Positions 12,097 through 60,096 of a stretch of 64,000 nucleotides of DNA are shown here, one piece after another. Position numbers and translations under genes: made by a program. The DNA comes from an uncultured Ruminococcus sp. (lineage in GTDB: Bacteria; Bacillota; Clostridia; Oscillospirales; Ruminococcaceae). The notes under the pieces are model-generated. The model did not search any database, had not been told where the DNA came from, and was given only the letters and a program-made list of their open reading frames with translations. Where the stretch lies: the NCBI GenBank assembly GCA_937926145.1, contig CALANW010000118.1:18338-82337 (forward strand), read 5' to 3'. Position 1 is the stretch's first letter. Each line of letters opens with the position of its first letter.

Positions 12097-12279
12097 AACG
12101 TCAGCTTTTATACACACAAAACTTACCTATCGGCATAAAAATGCCAACGGTTTAAGCACACACAGTGTTGATATTACAGCCGCCCGGTTTAAAATCGGAC
12201 ATACTCCATGAAAATTCCCCGGCAAACCGCCGGCCACCTTTCACTTCAACGCATATCTTGTTGCAGTCACGCAAGTAGT

Positions 12280-19860: not shown

Positions 19861-21274
19861 AAGTATCTTGAACCTCAAAACGGCGATATGGATGTACTTG
19901 GTCATCTTTATAACGGGTATTTTTGTACTGCTGTGGTTCACGTTCGGCGTGTCGCTCGAAGCGAACTACAAGAGCAAAAAGACCAAGGACATCGTTTCTA
20001 TCGCTTCGTATATTCTCAAGGGCTGGAACGAGGACGGACTGACTACCGAAAATCTCGACAATACGGCATACAATAATAATATGTGCATCCTTATTCAGGA
20101 CGCCGACGGCTACACGGTATATTCCTACGATATGATGGCGAACAACTGCCTTATCCACGGCGTTTACAGCCTGAACCTTTTCAAATACCGAAATCAGGCT
20201 CTTGCGAGCAGCAACGGCTATTATTACGCCGAGGTCAACAACCCGCGCTTCAACACGAACACACTGCTTTTCGTTATGGTCATAGGCTCGGTCGATGACC
20301 CCGAGGGCTATATTTACCTCAACACCTCTCTCGCACCGCTCAAATCGACCGCTGATATTATCAAGCGGCAGATATATTGGATAGGTATTATCCTGCTTCT
20401 GCTCGGACTTATCATTGCGTATTTCCTCGCGTCCGTTATCGAAGCGCCTATCGTCCGCATTACAAAAACCGCGAAGAAAATGGGCGAGGGAAACTACAAC
20501 GTTGTCTTTGACGGACACGGATATGAGGAAACGGAAATTCTCGCCGATACTCTGAACAGTGCGGAGGAAGAAATCTCAAAGGTCGATACTCTCCGCCGTG
20601 ACCTTATCGCGAACGTTTCGCACGATCTGAGAACGCCGCTCACAATGGTCAAAGCCTACGCCGAGATGATACGCGATATTTCGGGCGATAATCCGCAGAA
20701 GCGCGCTGAACATCTGAACGTTATCATCGAAGAGAGTGACCGACTTGCAAAGCTCGTCAATGATATCCTTGACCTTTCCAAACTTGAAAGCGGCAACTTT
20801 GAGATAACCGAAACGGAATTCTGCATCACCGACACGATACGAAGCATAATGGAGCGCTATACCCTGCTTTCCGAGCAGAAAGGCTACACCTTTATCGTTT
20901 CTGCCGAGCAGAATTTCATCGTCAAAGCCGATGCTGTTAAAATTCAGCAGGTAATTTACAACCTTATCAACAACGCCGTCAACTACACGGGCGAGGACAA
21001 GACCGTTTATATCACGCAGATAGTCAAGAAGAAAAAACTCGTCCGAATCGAGATAACCGACACGGGCGCAGGCATCGACCCCGAGCTGATACCGCTCATC
21101 TTCGACCGCTACTACCGCACGGAAAAGAGCAAGCGTGAGGTCATCGGCACGGGACTTGGACTTTCCATAGTAAAGCAGATACTCCAGCGCCACAACTATG
21201 AATTCGGCGTTCGTTCCGAAAAAGGTGTCGGAAGCACATTCTGGTTCGAGATGCCGGGACATCTTGAAGAATAA
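19847..21274 (+). CDS. sensor histidine kinase (HAMP-HisKA-HATPase)
   Basis: 475 aa with H-box SHDLRTPL, N-box NLINNAVNYT and G-boxes DTGAGI and GTGLGLSIV. The TTG start overlaps the regulator stop, so the start is uncertain. Confidence 0.9.
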   Translation: MKQHKSILNLKTAIWMYLVIFITGIFVLLWFTFGVSLEANYKSKKTKDIVSIASYILKGWNEDGLTTENLDNTAYNNNMCILIQDADGYTVYSYDMMANNCLIHGVYSLNLFKYRNQALASSNGYYYAEVNNPRFNTNTLLFVMVIGSVDDPEGYIYLNTSLAPLKSTADIIKRQIYWIGIILLLLGLIIAYFLASVIEAPIVRITKTAKKMGEGNYNVVFDGHGYEETEILADTLNSAEEEISKVDTLRRDLIANVSHDLRTPLTMVKAYAEMIRDISGDNPQKRAEHLNVIIEESDRLAKLVNDILDLSKLESGNFEITETEFCITDTIRSIMERYTLLSEQKGYTFIVSAEQNFIVKADAVKIQQVIYNLINNAVNYTGEDKTVYITQIVKKKKLVRIEITDTGAGIDPELIPLIFDRYYRTEKSKREVIGTGLGLSIVKQILQRHNYEFGVRSEKGVGSTFWFEMPGHLEE

Positions 21275-21384
21275 TGCGTAATTCGTAATGCTTAATGCGT
21301 AATTATTTTGTTCCGCAGGTTTACGGTGAGAACCCTATCTTCATAGGGACGGGTTTATATTCGACTGTTTTCCAACAAAAACTC

Positions 21385-21419: not shown

Positions 21420-21512
21420 ACAAAGAGGGCACACCGATAGACGGTCACTCCCAATATTTAGGTTAAGAAATAACCGTCCAAGTTTGGTCGCTCTGGGCGG
21501 TTATTTCTTTTT
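21420..21512 (+). ncRNA. candidate antisense (antitoxin) sRNA, copy 1 (ends approximate)
   Basis: No ORF. It ends in the hairpin GAAAUAACCGUCC...GGGCGGUUAUUUC (21467-21507) plus U5. The 3' end overlaps the last four codons and the 3' UTR of the convergent peptide gene. Confidence 0.55.
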
Positions 21513-21590
21513 ATTGTTGCAGCAATTCAACACTATCTGTATGATATTGCATATAAGTATTCCTAAAGATACAACTTCTGTGATACTCAT
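21501..21590 (-). CDS. 29-aa hydrophobic peptide, candidate type I toxin, copy 1
   Basis: Own translation: MSITEVVSLGILICNIIQIVLNCCNNKKK. The GGGGG SD lies 9 nt upstream. The peptide has one TM-like segment and a Lys tail. Confidence 0.6.
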   Translation of the reverse strand: MSITEVVSLGILICNIIQIVLNCCNNKKK

Positions 21591-21657
21591 ATCGCAACGC
21601 CCCCTTTCAGGGAGCAAAGATTGACCGCCTACCGTTTCTGGTATGCCCATAGATTCT

Positions 21658-21686
21658 ATTTTATCTTTTATGTTGAAATTTGTCAA
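21658..21686 (-). promoter_or_regulatory. promoter of peptide gene, copy 1
   Basis: Minus strand reads TTGACA (21686-21681), 17-nt spacer, TAAAAT (21663-21658). Confidence 0.6.
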
Positions 21687-21775
21687 TTATTTGAAATAAA
21701 TACACTTTTTTGTTGTTTTAAGCATCGACAGTTTACAATTGATAATTTTGTCGGAAACAAAATCAAAAACAGCTC

Positions 21776-21804
21776 TTGACATATCATTTTAAAAGCATTA
21801 TAAT
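21776..21804 (+). promoter_or_regulatory. consensus promoter of candidate antitoxin sRNA, copy 2
   Basis: TTGACA (21776-21781), 17-nt spacer, TATAAT (21799-21804). Confidence 0.7.
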
Positions 21805-21810
21805 ATAAAT

Positions 21811-21902
21811 ACAAAGAGGGCATACTGATAGACGGTCGCTCCCAAAATTAGCGAAAAAAAGTAATCGCTCCGGTTTGGTCGCTCGGGCGGTTACTTCTTT
21901 TT
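21811..21902 (+). ncRNA. candidate antisense (antitoxin) sRNA, copy 2 (ends approximate)
   Basis: Same architecture as copy 1, with a terminator hairpin at 21858-21897 plus U5. Confidence 0.55.
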
Positions 21903-21980
21903 ATTGTTGCAGCAATTCAATACTATCTGTATGATATTGCATATAAGTATTCCTAAAGATACAACTTCTGTGATACTCAT
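21891..21980 (-). CDS. 29-aa hydrophobic peptide, candidate type I toxin, copy 2
   Basis: Own translation gives a peptide identical to copy 1. Only 2 of 90 nt differ and both changes are synonymous. Not in the ORF track because it is under 60 aa. Confidence 0.6.
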   Translation of the reverse strand: MSITEVVSLGILICNIIQIVLNCCNNKKK

Positions 21981-22046
21981 ATCGCAACGCCCCCTTTCAG
22001 GGAGCAAAGATTGACCGCCTACCGTTCAGGTATGCCCATAAACCTT

Positions 22047-22183: not shown

Positions 22184-22379
22184 CGTTTATTTCATAACAC
22201 ATTGCGGCGCAGGATGGGCAACCGTCCATTGTAGTTTCGTGGGTCGCTAACGGGCGGATATGGAATCCGCCCCTACGGAATTCAGCCTTTCGTAAAATAT
22301 GCGGAGCAAGAATAATTGCGCATTACGAATTACGCATTGAATTAATTCCGCATTCCGAATTCCGAATTTAAACCAAGTA

Positions 22380-42099: not shown

Positions 42100-42102
<3 letters not shown>

Positions 42103-42585
42103 TTCGGAATTAGGAATTCGGAATGCGGAATTAGTTTGCTTCGCAAATAATTTTAAATCGTTGGGGCGGATTCTATATCCGCCCTTTTCGTGTTTAATTG
42201 CTAATTGGATTTTCGATATGCGAATAAACAAAGACAGACCTGTTTTCAAAGAATTATCCCTTTGAAAACAGGTCTGTTCGTTTATTTTATACTAAACACC
42301 AATTAAAAACTATACAAAAAATCAAGCAAAAGCTCGTAGCTGTTATAACAGCTTGATGTTGAAAACAGGTTTATATGGCTTTTGCGCCGATTTTTTGTCT
42401 ACACTTTGATTAAAAATTAGTATTATAACGCCTTGCGGCGCGGGACGGGAAACCCGTCCCCTACAGTAGTTCCGCTGTAATTCGTAGATTGCATCGGGCG
42501 GATATGGAATCCGCCCCTACGAAAATCCGTTTTTTCGCCGTAAATTTTCGGAGCAAAATAATTCCGAATTCCGCATTCCGAATTA
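42100..42585. repeat. mosaic intergenic repeat locus B (type example)
   Basis: Left array T(AATKMGG)x4AATTAG at 42100-42134. Right array (ATTCCGM)x3 at 42558-42585. Palindromes at 42163-42184 (+), 42442-42464 (-) and 42496-42520 (-). Central terminator hairpin at 42234-42277. Confidence 0.85.
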
Positions 42586-43635
42586 ATCCTTAATGTTTTC
42601 TATAAACTTCGTCAATTCCCCTGCCATTTCATTGTGTTCCGCAAGTCTTGGGTGTCCGGGAGTTGCCGCGCCGTTTCTTGTAAAGAGGTTATGGTATGCT
42701 TTTATGCCCATTTCGTTAAGCTCGTTCTTTATCTCCTCTATTGCGTTATCCCATTCGGCATCGTGCATCAATATTGTCGTTGTGAGGACAAATTTCGGCG
42801 AGGAATACTTTTTATCGAGGTCGCGGACCATTTTGATATATGCGGTCTTCCACACTTTTCTGTACTCGGGGTCGGAGATGTTTATATCGTCGCTGTCCGT
42901 TCTGCCGTTATGCTTATCGTTCTGACCGATAGCAATTACGACGATATCGGGGATATAACGTGAGAAATCCCACTGCGAAAGTCCGCCCTCGGGGAAGTAA
43001 CAGAGCTTATCATAGACGCTTTCCAGTCCGATATAATCGGGGTGGTGGAAATATCCCGTTCCGTCAAAGAGCGCGATGCCGCCCTGACAGATATTATGTA
43101 TTTCCGCACCGATATTGCGCGCGGTCTGCATCACAAAGCTGTTCCAGACGTTATCATAGCGGCTATTGTGATTTTCTGGGTCACATTTGCCGATATAATC
43201 TGCGGCTTCGATGACCTCACCTGCGCAAACGCTGTCGCCGTAAACTTCCATTTTAAGCTTCGGCTTTTCGGGCGCATCGAGCATTTCGCCGTCTATCTCA
43301 ATACCTTTGAGGGTCAAAAGCTGGTTTGCGGCGTGCTGCTTGTATATTGTGACATTATGCTCGGTGTTTTCAAGGTTTTCCGCTATAACAATATCGATAT
43401 CCCTGCCGTTATTTTCGGCGGAAAGCTTCACACTGCACTGTTTTCCGTCAACGACTGCGCCGAGGGAAAGTTCGCCCCAATAGATAACGGTGTTGATCCT
43501 GACGGTGAGTGCTGTTCCCTTGAAGCGGAACGAAGCACTTGAACCTGCGTAGTAAAACACGGGTGCATTTTCATCACCGAAATTTATTCTTCCGCTGTAT
43601 GATATCCTTTTATCCGACATTTTTATGCTGTTCAT
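42583..43635 (-). CDS. SGNH-hydrolase carbohydrate esterase (CE2-like acetyl esterase) with N-terminal beta-sandwich
   Basis: 350 aa with GDS block (VYGDSVCAG), GQND block and a C-terminal His (PGHP). No signal peptide. Confidence 0.75.
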   Translation of the reverse strand: MNSIKMSDKRISYSGRINFGDENAPVFYYAGSSASFRFKGTALTVRINTVIYWGELSLGAVVDGKQCSVKLSAENNGRDIDIVIAENLENTEHNVTIYKQHAANQLLTLKGIEIDGEMLDAPEKPKLKMEVYGDSVCAGEVIEAADYIGKCDPENHNSRYDNVWNSFVMQTARNIGAEIHNICQGGIALFDGTGYFHHPDYIGLESVYDKLCYFPEGGLSQWDFSRYIPDIVVIAIGQNDKHNGRTDSDDINISDPEYRKVWKTAYIKMVRDLDKKYSSPKFVLTTTILMHDAEWDNAIEEIKNELNEMGIKAYHNLFTRNGAATPGHPRLAEHNEMAGELTKFIENIKD

Positions 43636-45476: not shown

Positions 45477-45820
45477 TAATGCGGAATTAGGAATTCGGAA
45501 TTATTAGCATAGCTAACATTTGCCTGGTATTGCGAAGCCAAGCGAAACTTTATAAACCAACAATCAAATAGCGTGATATTTAGCAGATCAAAAGCGCAGT
45601 TCACACGATAACGGAAAACGAAATTCGTGATCTTTAATGTGAATTGCGCTGTTCTGTTTTTCCGAAACAAGCAAACAGCTTATACATAATGTTAGAATAT
45701 AACAACGCGTCAAAGCAATATGCCGCAGGGCTATTTACTTTTATATTTTTTACGGTATAATTAAAAATCAGAGCATGGACCCACGGCAATTCCGAATTCC
45801 GCATTCCGAATTCCGAATTT
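45477..45820. repeat. mosaic intergenic repeat locus C
   Basis: Left array at 45477-45503 (TAATGCGGAATTAGGAATTCGGAATTA). Right array (ATTCCGM)x4 at 45788-45820, directly upstream of the traX RBS. Confidence 0.8.
45593..45661 (+). terminator. long-loop hairpin plus U-rich tail inside locus C
   Basis: AGCGCAGTTCACA...TGTGAATTGCGCT followed by GTTCTGTTTTT. Plausible GH9 terminator. Confidence 0.45.
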
Positions 45821-47943: not shown

Positions 47944-48181
47944 GCAGGGACGAATTCCATATCCTCCGGATAAACGCACGATTTTGCTCCGCAAAACAAA
48001 TATTGCAGGACATTGTAATATAAACGAACAAGACCTGTTTTCATTGGAATTTTCCTTTGAAAACAGGTCTGTTTTTATAATTATTTCCGACACTTCGTGC
48101 GCCGAAAAATCACTTCGCGATTTGGGACAGGTGCCCCGCCCCTACGGAGTTTATGACAAATATACGCAATACAAATAATTA
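47944..48181. repeat. degenerate mosaic repeat locus D
   Basis: Degenerate palindromes at 47947-47970 and 48124-48145. The GATAAACGCACGATTTTGCTCCGCAAAAC module is present. Terminator hairpin at 48030-48072 plus T5. An ATTACGC heptamer remnant contains the galK stop. Confidence 0.65.
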
Positions 48182-49426
48182 CGCATTGATCTCAGTTCCG
48201 CCAACAGGACGAATGAAAAGCTTGTGGCACGAACCCTCGCCGAAGACAGCGTTTTCTGCCTTGATGAATTCGTCAAGAAGCTCGTTCGGAACGAACGCCT
48301 GAATAGTGCCAGCGAAGCCGCCGCCGTGTACACGCGATGCGCCCTTTCCGCCGAGAACGCGCTCTGCGGTGTAAAGTCCGACCGCAACGCCCTGCTCTTC
48401 GGGGTTCTTGTTCGCATAAACATTCTGCAGGAATTTATAGGAGCTGTTTCCGCTCGCGTTAATTGCTGCGAGGAATGTGTCGATATCGCCCGATTTGAGC
48501 GCTTCTGCCGCTTTTTCCACGCGGTTGTTCTCATCGAAGAAATGCGCCGCACGGAGAACTGCTCTGTCACCGCACTTTTTGCGAAGTTCGCCCATTTTCG
48601 CGAAGAACTCCTCTTCCTCGACCTCGCGGAGAACGGTCTTTCCGAGTGCCGCCGCAACCGACTTCATCTCGGCAGGGATAGCCGCATATTCGGGGGTAAG
48701 GTCTGCGTGGCTGCCCTTGGTGTCAACGATGCAGAGGGTGTAGCCGTACTGATTGATGTTGAACTCGATCGGCACGATGATAGGATACTGCGTTTTCTTG
48801 AAGTCAACATAAACGAAGCCGCCGACCGAAGCCGCCATTTGGTCAAGAAGTCCGCTCGGCTTGCCAAAATATTCATTCTCGGCGAACTGTGATATCTGCG
48901 CCGCCTTAACTGCGCTCACGGTGTTGTCATTGTAAAGTCCCGAAAGTATGCTTGCAACGAGGACTTCAAACGCTGCCGAGGACGAAACGCCGCTTCCTTT
49001 CATAACGTCCGAGGTCATATAAGCCTTGAAGCCGCCTATTTTAAGTCCGTTTTTTGCAAAGCCTGCCGCAACACCTCTAACGAGCGCAGGAGTTGTGTCC
49101 TTTTCGTCAGCCTTGGCTTCAAGCTCTTTCGTGTCAACGGTGAAAAGTGGATAGCCCTCCGATTTTACGGTGATGATGCCGTCATCGGTCGGAACGGTGT
49201 ATGCGATGATGTCAAGGTTTACAGCCGCCGCAAGAACCTTGCCGTTGTTGTGGTCGGTGTGGTTGCCGCTTACCTCTGTTCTGCCGGGGGCGGAGAAAAT
49301 TCTCATGCCGCTCTGCTCGCCGAATTCCCTGACAAAGCTTTCCTCAGCAGCCTTGTAACGTGCTTTCTGGCGGTCAAGCTGATCTTCGCCGTAAAGCTTT
49401 ATAAGCTCATTTTCATTGATATTCAT
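48179..49426 (-). CDS. galK: galactokinase
   Basis: 415 aa with the galactokinase signature GRTEVSGNHTDHNNG and a GHMP motif (GSGVSSSAA). Confidence 0.93.
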   Translation of the reverse strand: MNINENELIKLYGEDQLDRQKARYKAAEESFVREFGEQSGMRIFSAPGRTEVSGNHTDHNNGKVLAAAVNLDIIAYTVPTDDGIITVKSEGYPLFTVDTKELEAKADEKDTTPALVRGVAAGFAKNGLKIGGFKAYMTSDVMKGSGVSSSAAFEVLVASILSGLYNDNTVSAVKAAQISQFAENEYFGKPSGLLDQMAASVGGFVYVDFKKTQYPIIVPIEFNINQYGYTLCIVDTKGSHADLTPEYAAIPAEMKSVAAALGKTVLREVEEEEFFAKMGELRKKCGDRAVLRAAHFFDENNRVEKAAEALKSGDIDTFLAAINASGNSSYKFLQNVYANKNPEEQGVAVGLYTAERVLGGKGASRVHGGGFAGTIQAFVPNELLDEFIKAENAVFGEGSCHKLFIRPVGGTEINA

Positions 49427-49439
49427 AGTTTTATTCTCC

Positions 49440-50720
49440 TTAGCTTTCCATTATTGCAAGAATTGTGATGCCCTTGTCCTCCGAACCATCGGCAGGCTTT
49501 ATTTCAACAGTGTGCTTTTCGGTGTCCTTTGCAAGAAGAACCTGCTTCGGGAAAGCGTAATTTCCCCAGCCGCCCGAGAAGTCGCCCTCGAGCTTGCCCT
49601 TGCGCTCGCCGTCAACATAAACTTCGTAAGTACCGCTCTTGCCGTCCGTAGTTTTGAGGTAAAGTATGCCGATGTTCTGACATTCAACATCGAATGAGAG
49701 CGTTCCGCCGCCCTCCGTTATCCAGTTTTCGGGGAACTGTGAGTAGACCTTGTTCTGACCGACCTCGAAGCCGTCGGCAGTATATTCGATCTGCGAAGCG
49801 TTGACAAGCTTTGCGTTTTTGTAGTAATCGTTTGTGTAGCCCTCTGTGTCGAATGCAGTCACTTCAGCGGCAAGAGAAGCTGTGTCGGAATCGTAAATTC
49901 CGTCAAGATAGCGGGAAAGAAGCTGACCGATGATGCCGTGACCGATATCGTTCGGGTGAATGTTGTCGGGCGAAATGTCTTTCCAGTTGATAGTTCCTGC
50001 CGCAACCTCGGGATAAACGGCTTCACGGTAGCTTATCATTGGCAGATCGTAAGCCTTGCCTATCTCCTTGTGAACGTCCTGCAGGCTCGTTCCGTCCTCC
50101 TGCGTGGTGAAAAGGAGAATGACAGCAGGCTCGTTTTCAGCGGAAAGAACCTTGCGCACAAGGCTGTCGTAGGAGTATTTGTTCATGGTCTTGTCCGTGT
50201 CGTTTACCGAGAATTCGATAACAACAACATCGGGGTTGTAGGAAAGAAGCTGTTCGTCAGCGCGGTGAACGCCAAGATAGGAGTCCGTTCCGCCGATGCC
50301 TGCATTAACTGTGTTGACTTCGCACTCGGGGAACTTTTCCTGCCACCAGGAGAAAAATCTCGAAGCATAGCAGCTGTTAGTGCTTGATGCCGCCGTTCCC
50401 TGCGTGATAGAGCCGCCGATAGCCGCAACGGTGATGCTTTCACCCTTTTTAGCCTTTTCCATAGCCGCTGCAAGACGGGAAGTGTTGCCCTCGTTGAGGA
50501 GTGCGCGGTTGTACATCTTGTCGGTAACGCCGCCCTCAAGGTCGAACGGTACGCTCGGGTCAACAGCGTTTTCATCTACCGAAACAGCGGTGGTAACAAC
50601 CGTCGCCGCCTCGCTCGTTTCGGAAGTGCCTGCATCGTCAGTCTTGTTTCCGCAGCCGCCGAGCATCGAAATGCATATAAGCGCCGCGATAAAAGCGGAA
50701 ATGCGCTTTGTATTCTTCAT
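49440..50720 (-). CDS. secreted SGNH/GDSL-type esterase lipoprotein with C-terminal beta-sandwich domain
   Basis: Lipobox ISMLGGCG. Block I reads AAIGGSITQG and block V reads DNIHPNDIGH. Confidence 0.75.
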   Translation of the reverse strand: MKNTKRISAFIAALICISMLGGCGNKTDDAGTSETSEAATVVTTAVSVDENAVDPSVPFDLEGGVTDKMYNRALLNEGNTSRLAAAMEKAKKGESITVAAIGGSITQGTAASSTNSCYASRFFSWWQEKFPECEVNTVNAGIGGTDSYLGVHRADEQLLSYNPDVVVIEFSVNDTDKTMNKYSYDSLVRKVLSAENEPAVILLFTTQEDGTSLQDVHKEIGKAYDLPMISYREAVYPEVAAGTINWKDISPDNIHPNDIGHGIIGQLLSRYLDGIYDSDTASLAAEVTAFDTEGYTNDYYKNAKLVNASQIEYTADGFEVGQNKVYSQFPENWITEGGGTLSFDVECQNIGILYLKTTDGKSGTYEVYVDGERKGKLEGDFSGGWGNYAFPKQVLLAKDTEKHTVEIKPADGSEDKGITILAIMES

Positions 50721-50816
50721 ATATTATCGTTCCTTTCCGATTTTTAGGAAAAATATTCAATGTACTAATTATACCAAACTTTTGCTGTAAATGCAATAAT
50801 GTTTGAGGGATTTTAT

Positions 50817-50919
50817 TAATGCTTAATGCGTAATTCGTAATGCGTAATTATTTTATTTCGGGAAATTGTTGTTTCGCCGTAAATTTGCGGAGCAAAATAA
50901 TTACGCATTGCGAATTGCA
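50817..50919. repeat. minimal mosaic repeat element (locus E, 103 bp)
   Basis: The (AATKCKT)x4 array at 50817-50850 and the inverted ATTRCGM array at 50899-50919 are separated only by the ATTTCGGG...CGCCGTAAATTTGCGGAGCAAAAT core. Confidence 0.8.
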
Positions 50920-53251: not shown

Positions 53252-54319
<1,068 letters not shown>

Positions 54320-54322
<3 letters not shown>

Positions 54323-54590
54323 TTCGGAATTAGGAATTCGGAATGCGGAATTATTGGTGATTTGTACATTTGTCACGAAACGCCAAAATTTCGTACCATA
54401 AGGCATTAATATAATAACAAACAACCCTGTTTTCAATGGTTTTATCCAAAGAAAATAGGGTTGTTTTTGTTATTATTCAAGATATTGGGTACACATAAAA
54501 TTGCTGACGCAATTCGGGACGGAAATCGGTTCTCGCCATAAATTTGCGGAGCAAAGTAATTCCGAATTCCGCATTCCGAATTCCGAATTA
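54320..54590. repeat. mosaic intergenic repeat locus F
   Basis: Left array at 54320-54353 starts with the ilvC stop TAA. Right array (ATTCCGM)x4 at 54558-54590 ends with the sod stop. Terminator hairpin at 54421-54464. Degenerate palindrome at 54516-54535. Confidence 0.85.
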
Positions 54591-55187
54591 ATATAAAATG
54601 TTTCTCTCCAATTCGTCCCAGTTAAGTATTTCAAGCGCCGCATCAATGTAATCATCACGGTGGTTCTGACGGTCGAGGTAGTAGCTGTGTTCCCATAGAT
54701 CGAGAGCGCAGACGGGACGGATATTTTCACCCTCGGGGAGCGTATGATTCGGCGTTGACATTATAAACAGTCCTCCGCAGCAGTCCTCGCAGACCCATGT
54801 AAAACCCGAGCCGTAGACCTTTGCGGCGGTTTCTTTTATCGCTTTGAGAAATTTCTCCACACTGCCAAACTGCTTGTTCAGGATCATTTTCAAATGGTCG
54901 GACGGCTCTTTCCGATTCGGCGAAAGCGACTTGAAATACAGCTCGTGTCCGAACACTGATGCGGCGGCTCTTGCGATATCGATATCTTTCCAGTGAGCAA
55001 GGTTTTCAAGGCTGATATTCTGCGCCTGCGGCTGTTCAAGCACCATTGCATTGAGCTTTTTCAGCGTCGGCAGATAATGCTCATTATAGTGAAAAAACAC
55101 GGTGAAGCGCCCGATATTCGGTTCGAGCGCATTGTCCTCATACTCCAATTTCAGTTCCGCAAAGGGATAATATTGTTCATATACCAT
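54588..55187 (-). CDS. sodA: Fe/Mn-family superoxide dismutase
   Basis: 199 aa with DLWEHSYYLD. The four metal ligands can be aligned by eye (H in FFHYNEH, H in FGHELYF, and D and H in DLWEH). Confidence 0.8.
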   Translation of the reverse strand: MVYEQYYPFAELKLEYEDNALEPNIGRFTVFFHYNEHYLPTLKKLNAMVLEQPQAQNISLENLAHWKDIDIARAAASVFGHELYFKSLSPNRKEPSDHLKMILNKQFGSVEKFLKAIKETAAKVYGSGFTWVCEDCCGGLFIMSTPNHTLPEGENIRPVCALDLWEHSYYLDRQNHRDDYIDAALEILNWDELERNILY

Positions 55188-59673: not shown

Positions 59674-60096
59674 TAAATTCGGAATTCGGAATGCGGAATT
59701 CGAAATTATTTTGCTCCGTAAATTTATGGCGAGAACCGATTTTCCGTAGGGGCGGATTCTATATCCGCCCGATAAACGCACGATTTTGTTCCGCAAAACG
59801 GAATGTAAAGGACGTTTTTCCAGTTCCGCGCCGCAAGGCGTTTATACAATAAAAACAACCCTGTTTCAATGGCTTTTAACCGATGAAACAGAGTTGTTTT
59901 GTTATGCGGTAAACCATACCGAAATATATGCACCGAAAAATCGCTGGCGCGATTCGGGACGGGCAACCCGTCCCCTACAGAAAATGCGCCCAAATATAGA
60001 TTTTGCATCGGTCGGATATGGAATCCGACCCTACGATTTACGGCAATTTGCGGAGCAAAAATAATTCCGAATTCCGAATTCATAATTCCGAATTTA
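59674..60096. repeat. mosaic intergenic repeat locus G
   Basis: Left array at 59674-59708 and right array at 60059-60096. GTAG-headed palindromes at 59746-59770 (+), 59956-59978 (-) and 60010-60034 (-). Terminator hairpin at 59852-59900. Confidence 0.85.

Follow-up and report, generated by a model that had tools for sequence, protein, structure and literature searches.

Why do genes of this genome end exactly where tandem heptamer repeats begin? The stretch of DNA analyzed here, 64,000 nucleotides long and called the window below, is C118:18338-82337 of a 3.17-Mb assembly (44.7% G+C, 176 contigs). In it, the convergent genes ilvC and sod flank an intergenic cassette whose terminal arms are arrays of three to five heptamer units of the form [GT]AAT[GT][AC][GT]. 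An earlier note on the sequence had read the stop codons of both genes as part of these arrays, and this proved correct. The ilvC stop, TAA at 54320-54322, opens the array at 54320-54353, and plus-strand TTA at 54588-54590, the stop of sod, closes the inverted array at 54557-54590. The left junction reads ..ATC AAC AAC TAA TTCGGAATTAGGAATTCGGAATGCGGAATTA.., and the far end reads ..TAATTCCGAATTCCGCATTCCGAATTCCGAATTA ATATAAAATG... Two arm types were distinguished, T-type (TAATGCG TAATTCG TAA..) and G-type (GAATTCG). The locus is composed as follows:

53291-54322, plus strand: ilvC, ketol-acid reductoisomerase of 343 aa (Pfam KARI_N and KARI_C), whose stop is common to the left array
54320-54353, plus strand: left arm, G-type, 34 nt (TAATTCG GAATTAG GAATTCG GAATGCG GAATTA)
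54354-54419, plus strand: interior of the left half, in degenerate form; other copies have TTTTGCTCCGCAAATTT and then GTAG-headed REP hairpins
54420-54470, no strand assigned: central hairpin of the CCTGTTTTCA...TGAAAACAGG module family, T-rich on both strands
54471-54556, minus strand: interior of the right half, with a GGGACGG hairpin (REP-like, degenerate) followed by GCCATAAATTTGCGGAGCAAAG
54557-54590, minus strand: right arm, an inverted G-type array of 34 nt, whose outermost plus-strand triplet, TTA, is the sod stop
54588-55187, minus strand: sod, Fe/Mn superoxide dismutase of 199 aa (Pfam Sod_Fe_N and Sod_Fe_C)

The relatives of the sod gene come from uncultured Ruminococcus / Oscillospiraceae gut MAGs. 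The earlier note had described comparable junctions at the convergent pair of gdhA and a CE2 esterase gene, at a histidine kinase gene and at galK, and all were found as described. The further features of the window are these:

42100-42134, plus strand: G-type array whose TAA-T is common to the gdhA stop (42100-42102; gene read from Pfam)
42558-42592, minus strand: inverted array at the end of the CE2 esterase gene (Pfam), containing its stop (42583-42585)
21272-21306, plus strand: T-type array whose first TAA (21272-21274) is the stop of the histidine kinase gene (Pfam)
22314-22369, minus strand: composite right arm, T-type units giving way to G-type ones, of a 1.1-kb cassette with small toxin-like ORFs
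48170-48186, minus strand: T-type remnant, 1.5 units long, in which galK stops (48179-48181) with ..ATC AAT GCG TAA
45477-45820, no strand assigned: cassette with a type-B interior; its left array lies 5 nt past the stop of a gene for 543 aa and its right array 21 nt before the next start
50817-50851, plus strand: T-type array of a mini-element of ~110 bp in a divergent promoter region
59675-60095, no strand assigned: cassette between convergent genes, with arrays 11 nt and 4 nt from the respective stops

The name type B was given to a second module family of ~400 bp, into which many unpaired arrays lead. As the earlier note had stated, T-type arrays hold TAA in every frame within 17 nt, since TAA recurs at offsets 0, 7, and 14. 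G-type arrays do not provide stops in every frame.

Mosaic intergenic cassettes of 127-1071 bp carry the heptamer arrays as inverted arms at their termini. From the outside inward, a cassette consists of an arm, a TTTTGCTCCGCAAATTT-like segment, GTAG-headed REP hairpins (GTAGGGGCGGATTCTATATCCGCCC, GTAGGGGACGGGTTTCCCGTCCC), and a central hairpin, followed by the mirror image of this order. The central hairpins form a family (CCTGTTTTCA..TGAAAACAGG) with T-rich tracts on both strands. GTAG-headed palindromes of the kind found inside the cassettes occur in 132 copies genome-wide. At the ilvC-sod cassette, the arrays as such are A/T-rich arms ~200 nt apart, and the G+C-rich stem with a U-run that marks an intrinsic terminator is absent from them and present only in the central hairpin at 54420-54470, which looks like a bidirectional terminator. 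When the element (54317-54593) was folded as RNA, the arms paired into a stem of ~35 bp (dG -104 kcal/mol, z = -9.6); a control with the reversed sequence says nothing here, the heptamer unit reversed being its own rotation. No known RNA family was recognized: Rfam at its gathering threshold returned zero matches at the cassettes and no rRNA in the window, and no tRNAs were found. As candidate miniature inverted-repeat elements (MITEs), the cassettes have terminal inverted repeats, the size range given above, and ends (TAAT...ATTA) so palindromic that a target-site duplication is inseparable from them. No transposase linked to the cassettes was found. The idea that a RAYT gene drives these REP hairpins was set aside, because the sole Y1_Tnp gene of the genome (C74) is IS200-type TnpA-like and lacks flanking REPs.

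The earlier note had proposed genome-wide statistics on the distance between array ends and stop codons. These were compiled for the window's genome only, relatives being read via alignments, with a simple gene model based on ORFs and codon scores (2590 genes, 83% coding) in which single offsets may be wrong. Of the 185 arrays located, 121 (65%) had a gene stop at -17 to +8 nt from the outer end, compared with 1.7% for random intergenic positions and orientations (P ~1e-164), and the enrichment is thus present. The outer neighbor was the 3' end of a gene reading into the array in 149 cases and a 5' end in 35 (P = 3e-23); 81% of arms face a gene 3' end, with a constant orientation to the gene. 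Arrays on the 5' side lie at scattered distances of 8 to 822 nt from the start codon. For 38 arrays the first TAA serves as the stop codon of the gene, and an overlapped TAAT was accordingly counted at 38 junctions versus an end-to-end TAA/TAAT at 1. Arrays were found in 20% of convergent spacers versus 2.3% of tandem and 2.4% of divergent ones. An inverted array pair lies within 37 convergent gene pairs; in 34 of these the stop-to-stop space outside the element was -43 to +17 nt, and the median over all 37 was -2 nt (both sides summed). The distribution of flushness seems sharp and bimodal, an array being either flush or separated by an entire terminator that was kept. Native convergent spacers without an array are compact in themselves: for those of 45-200 bp the median length is 68 bp, and a median of 12 nt separates the strongest hairpin from either stop. 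Tracking of replication direction was also considered; solo arrays showed no association with local GC skew or with the gene-strand majority, a comparison of low power across 176 contigs, and this idea was set aside.

The choice of stop codon bears on how the junctions arose. The abutted genes end in TAA, TGA, and TAG in 96, 22, and 3 cases, respectively, against a background of 63%/33%/4%, so that TAA is over-represented (P = 9e-4). Where the stop lies wholly outside the array, 29 TAA and 20 TGA were counted, which matches the background of 63% versus 33%, and on this ground TAA-specific targeting was rejected. The insertion preference for TAA/TTAA at stops that the earlier note had suggested is therefore unsupported as stated, and arrays also lie flush behind retained terminators and near promoter -35 boxes. 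Roughly 25-30 TGA genes are missing among those abutted, which may indicate that the array TAA took the place of a native TGA at a considerable minority of the apparently shared stops; a slight preference for genes ending in TAA would explain the deficit just as well. In addition, the array encodes the tail of ~20 genes (for example LMRNS, LMRNA, NA, NS, and NSEL before the stop), and such tails occur at 15 of 46 T-type arrays versus 6 of 76 G-type arrays (P = 9e-4).

Native and array-supplied gene ends were then distinguished with orthologues of six genes from genomes within the genus (individual genomes are denoted by G numbers). For ilvC, the array-free genome G006 ends ..INN TAA T at the identical position. 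For gdhA, ..WQGV[SA]Y TAA T was found in 12 of 12 genomes, seven of which have no array there. As aligned, the native TAA-T is merely shared with the array in these two genes, and the overlap is trivial. The histidine kinase of the window's own clade ends ..HLEE TAA, with the TAA as the first triplet of the array, while in G018 it ends ..HLKE TGA, followed by an 11-nt spacer and then the same array as in the own clade; in G002 the gene reads into an AATTGAT-type array and ends ..AIDN. For galK, the own clade ends ..INA TAA, the TAA being that of the array, and the array-free G006 ends ..INA TGA followed by a possible decayed unit. A switch from a T-type to a G-type array in G002 removed the TAA of galK, and the ORF is prolonged to ..SAEF. 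Because the protein ends of the own-clade kinase and galK match a relative with a TGA stop, their TAA is probably supplied by the array and has probably taken the place of a native TGA. The direction from spaced to flush at the histidine kinase is argued from parsimony, and the TGA-ended relative of galK might conceivably be a relic site itself.

In the two remaining genes, the tail itself is altered in the alignments, with differences in the final one to three residues. The CE2 esterase ends ..NIL in G013 and G006 and ..IL in G018, where an array begins at that TAA; it ends ..IKD in the own genome, G012, and G007 (..NIKD in the own genome, final codons AAG GAT). Sod ends ..EKNL in G006, ..ERNILY or ..ERNIMN in G-type alleles, and ..ERNIINA in T-type alleles. 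The six sets as read from these alignments show two shared native stops, two probable replacements, and two altered tails. Replacement of native gene ends, one of the possibilities raised earlier, is thus indicated for the histidine kinase, galK, the CE2 esterase, and sod; ilvC and gdhA keep a native TAA-T. Conversely, the outcome that would have made the overlap trivial, an array-free orthologue with the same C-terminus and a native TAA-T, was obtained for the latter two genes and not for the other four. No clean empty site was recovered in close relatives, the candidates in G012 (rplQ) and in G018 and G006 (galK) having the look of decayed relics. At most sites, insertion at the stop is for this reason indistinguishable from later loss of the spacer.

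Stop codons are not the only features against which the arrays rest. The native terminator of rplQ is kept in six species, in five of which the array follows directly past the T-run, and the junctions between T-run and unit are ragged. Terminator-like hairpins also precede the arrays behind genes whose products alone suggest eno and secG. About 10 arrays stop short of outward promoters (TTGACx-17-TATAAT), their ends lying 4-27 nt upstream of the -35 box. Between argC and argJ, cassettes with a PF05635 gene span the space from the argC stop to a few nucleotides before the argJ ribosome-binding site. In G008, 10 of 18 arrays of a GAATTAA family lie after native terminator T-runs and 3 are flush with stops.

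We consider it somewhat more probable than even that the arms have been compacted against the first functional base that they met, the TAA codons of the array rendering the overlap harmless. According to this proposal, the terminator-like hairpin of the cassette would render native spacer DNA dispensable. The arms would behave as unstable microsatellites, and the spacer up to the first functional base would disappear, probably through deletions at short (T)AAT homologies. Because the arm ends in TAAT and carries a TAA every 7 nt, a junction that overlaps or trims the end of an ORF would still terminate translation and survive selection. The arm would come to rest at a required feature, namely a stop, the T-run of a retained terminator, a ribosome-binding site, or a -35 box. 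Native convergent spacers, with the strongest hairpin so close to each stop, would have left little spare DNA from the outset. In favor of compaction are the contrast between the spaced kinase end of G018 and the flush one of the own clade, the galK ends, the 38 overlapped versus 1 end-to-end junctions, the features other than stops at which arrays rest, the greater share of T-type arrays that encode tails, and an arm copy number that varies from ~3 to 7 at an unmoved ilvC junction. We infer both the process of spacer deletion and its direction. Besides the failure to recover a clean empty site, two findings weigh against compaction. With both arms flush in 34 of 37 convergent cassettes, it needs many independent losses of native terminators, and slow random deletion might leave more intermediates than the bimodal distribution contains.

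The arm might instead be born flush, by a site-selective mechanism that integrates at (T)AAT or unit-like gene 3' ends or at the boundary of a T-run and AAT. We regard such targeted integration as unlikely. The arm always starts in the phase xAAT, and the native TAA-T lies exactly at the ilvC and gdhA junctions. The native end of galK, AATGCGT, amounts to one complete T-type unit; the kinase end carries T-type, composite G+T, or AATTGAT-type (G002) arrays depending on the lineage; and post-terminator junctions are exact as well (TTTTTT/AAT). All of this would be expected of a site-selective mechanism. However, genes ending in TGA are abutted at the background rate, with A/T spacers of 1-5 nt, and the register of overlap is variable (2, 1, or 0 nt, in other cases a 1-5-nt spacer), whereas a transposase would cut precisely. 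TAAT is frequent across A/T-rich spacers yet is avoided by arrays, and the kinase gene of G018 has the same array 11 nt off its stop. Moreover, no transposase is associated with the cassettes, PF05635 is without known catalytic function, and the lone Y1 gene belongs, as noted above, to an IS200-type element without REP flanks.

Selection might also keep the array after the stop as a functional module of the 3' end, an explanation that we hold to be distinctly unlikely. Possible roles are a back-up stop in all frames, a platform for a protein (possibly a PF05635 pentamer), or one strand of a stem cleaved by RNase III. If the last applied, the arm might define or destabilize the mRNA 3' end, as in the intervening sequences (IVS) of rRNA. 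The constant orientation of the arms, the 81% of them at gene 3' ends, and the excess in convergent spacers (20% versus 2.3% in tandem and 2.4% in divergent ones) are consistent with a function, as are the pairing of the arms into a stem of ~35 bp and the cleavage by RNase III of a heptamer-containing stem in the Coxiella IVS (PMC4990558). The two arms of a cassette also vary together. Arm pairs within the genome agree in type in 43 of 54 cases (P = 3e-4), and mixed types are absent from the complete ilvC-sod alleles examined, each of which is either G/G or T/T. Against a function, strains whose flanking proteins are identical differ freely in the type and copy number of the arm. In ten assemblies with an identical IlvC protein, the ilvC-side arm ranges from ~3 to 7 units with partial duplications, and the arms are G-type or T-type, both switching together while the TAA junction is unmoved. 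The gdhA arm of G007 changed from G-type to T-type with the interior unchanged. Furthermore, 6 of 19 genus genomes are without this array family, gdhA has no array in some array-bearing genomes, and three-frame stops are missing from G-type arrays. By inference from the sequence, a transcript ending at the central hairpin would hold one arm only.

The arrays are related to genes for PF05635 (23S_rRNA_IVP) proteins. Within the genomes searched, the cassettes are restricted to this genus, the array family being found in 13 of 19 genus genomes (the window's own counted) and in 0 of 22 genomes of other genera. PF05635 genes are framed by GAATTCG arrays in G012, G014, and G017, and one in G010 by TAATGCG arrays; other frames are GAATTAA (G008), AAATTGC (G006), and GAGAGTG-like (G003). 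The own genome has a single PF05635 gene (C47:1056-1409), framed by inverted AATAGTT arrays. The gene upstream of it has its stop inside the AATAGTT array (C AAT AGT TAA). The closest solved structure to the PF05635 protein is PDB 2rld, deposited with five chains. Since the heptamers of the window frame PF05635 genes in sister genomes, the window cassettes are gene-less relatives of those elements. A PF05635 ORF between the arms is absent from every cassette in the window, which makes them derivatives and not full members of the PF05635/S23p IVS-like class. The presence of the gene does not track that of the arrays: the near-complete genomes G002 and G018 carry 80-200 arrays without the gene, and G006 and G008 have the gene but other heptamers.

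A PF05635 protein, or another factor that recognizes the arrays, might actively rewrite the arms; we judge this quite improbable. Both arms would be homogenized to the current heptamer of the genome, and an arm would be extended or re-seated at the nearest constrained base. Active homogenization would account for the paired switching between G- and T-type arms and for differing heptamer families at one gene end among sister species. If it were true, gene ends, stops, and C-terminal tails would be repeatedly overwritten by a previously unrecognized system of repeat maintenance or mobility. Finally, chance or annotation, in that A/T-rich repeats containing TAA end any spurious ORF that enters them, has next to no prospect of explaining the pattern, for although overlaps of class 0 are partly definitional, an ORF that enters a T-type array having to stop within 17 nt, the ORFs concerned are long and well scoring with Pfam domains and conserved orthologues, the 65% observed faces 1.7% by random placement, and TGA-ending genes are likewise abutted.

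For annotation, the junctions mean that the stops and up to five C-terminal residues of ~20 genes are derived from repeats and differ between near-identical strains. For genome evolution, compaction would make the cassettes selfish DNA packed to the exact limit of what selection tolerates, their own stop codons keeping the junction harmless.

Several known systems resemble these cassettes in part. Enterobacterial REP/BIME elements are modular mosaics of palindromic units that fill spacers at gene 3' ends. The cassettes share with them the mosaic filling of spacers at gene 3' ends and the GTAG-headed palindromes; they differ in that the heptamer arms are not REPs and that no REP-flanked RAYT gene was found.

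The ORF-bearing 23S rRNA IVS of Coxiella burnetii and Leptospira (Warrier et al. 2016, PMC4990558) are similar in that a small gene for a four-helix-bundle PF05635 protein is framed by terminal inverted repeats with tandem heptamers (GACAGAT in Coxiella), the arms of which form a long stem. In C. burnetii, the IVS has an S23p/PF05635 ORF and heptamers in the terminal stem, and is cleaved by RNase III (PMC4990558). By contrast, the window copies are gene-less mosaics of 127-1071 bp that lie between protein-coding genes and not at helix 25 or 45, the classical locations, and they bear REP hairpins, a terminator-like module, or toxin-antitoxin cargo. Judged from the shared heptamers, the present data strengthen the link between the arrays and the arms of PF05635 (IVS-protein) cassettes, of which we found no published account.

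The heptamers of Rehm et al. 2015 (Xanthomonas GGGAATC, Nostoc GGGGAYT; PMC4692102) come closest in distribution. In Xanthomonas, ~190 dispersed arrays per genome, mostly of ~4 units and with 70-75 arrays as convergent inverted pairs, favor sense-strand positions no more than 50 bp from a stop, sometimes overlapping it (PMC4692102). The arrays described here are likewise dispersed tandem heptamers with inverted pairs and enrichment within 50 bp past the stop on the sense strand. Unlike those G-rich repeats, which were read as G-quadruplex formers (PMC4692102), they are A/T-rich; neither TAATGCG nor GAATTCG contains a run of G that could serve as a G-quadruplex tract. Neither orthologue tests of gene ends nor a link to PF05635 was found in that report. 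In marine Beggiatoaceae, TAACTGA arrays stop all frames and overlap ORF ends by up to two units, with 13 such ORFs listed (MacGregor 2015, PMC4679880). They resemble the present arrays as heptamer arrays with three-frame stop codons, but they lie mostly directly upstream of, and oriented to, start codons and have no inverted arms (PMC4679880).

Heptamer repeats near stops are thus known in other bacteria, and an A/T-rich Firmicute family is added here that joins the gene-end heptamers of Xanthomonas, Nostoc, and Beggiatoaceae and widens the pattern. The present analysis contributes the resolution of the junctions to single bases, the orthologue evidence that tells native from array-supplied stops, and the switching of arm type at the level of strains.

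A block consisting of galK and a gene for a 426-aa protein occupies window positions 48179-50851, with inverted array remnants at both borders. In a genome of the same genus (G012, contig C7; locus L025, 5784-8729), this block lies in the reverse orientation relative to the window. The opposite orientations are consistent with inversion through recombination between the heptamer arms.

Heptamer sequences were also observed at the argC-argJ junction. In four genomes of the genus (G008, G010, G012, and G014), a cassette carrying the 23S rRNA intervening-sequence protein gene (PF05635) is located between argC and argJ. In the genome to which the window belongs, this place is occupied by a hicA/hicB toxin-antitoxin pair (contig C12, minus strand, from about 8805 downwards). 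The argC stop codon on C12 is overlain by a 2.5-unit array remnant (TAA ATTCGGAATTGGGAATAC). Differing cargo can apparently be framed by heptamer arms. Within the window, a small ORF is present in duplicate between array arms at 21484-22010 (..MSITEVVSLGILICNIIQIVLNCCNNKKK), and its predicted peptide, hydrophobic with a KKK tail, is type I toxin-like. A similar peptide is encoded at about position 11990 of contig C139, 3' of a type-B module.

The type-B interior, a second repeat family of about 400 bp, is repeated behind arrays, both at window positions 45477-45820 and at many solo arrays across the genome. Its layout is ..TTATTTGCAGAGCTGACATTTGTCGGGCAATGCGAAGCCAA.. GTCGCTCTCCGCAGAGAGCGAAA..CCCTAAACTAACAG.., followed by the hairpin AAAAGGCGCAATTCACA, and Rfam gave no match for this interior. 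An unassembled IS-like repeat with the terminal sequence CATATGCACTAACCTAAGCAAATATCAGACATCTGTAAGGAAT was found at at least 10 contig ends of the same assembly (e.g., C46, C61, C125, C138, C145, and C147). Because this end was joined in every case to the type-B module hairpin GGGGCAGCGCCCC, the results suggest that the hairpin is the target of an insertion sequence.

Additional heptamer families, AATTGAT, GACAGTT/AATAGTT, and AATTATC, were detected at gene ends (the 3' end of the G002 histidine kinase gene, locus L130; and C47:135-290 of the own genome). Since one gene end bears different heptamers across sister species, the repeat unit appears to turn over rapidly.

An S10-Clostridia ribosomal protein leader was matched by Rfam at window positions 12177-12257 on the minus strand (38.5 bits), consistent with a Clostridia origin.

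The window's own genome contains 132 GTAGGGG[AC][CG]G sites, and no RAYT gene matching the REPs was found in it. No GTAG REP hairpins lie near its single Y1_Tnp gene (C74:7071-7427, locus L001), which is IS200-like; judged from its sequence, the product looks like a canonical IS200 TnpA.
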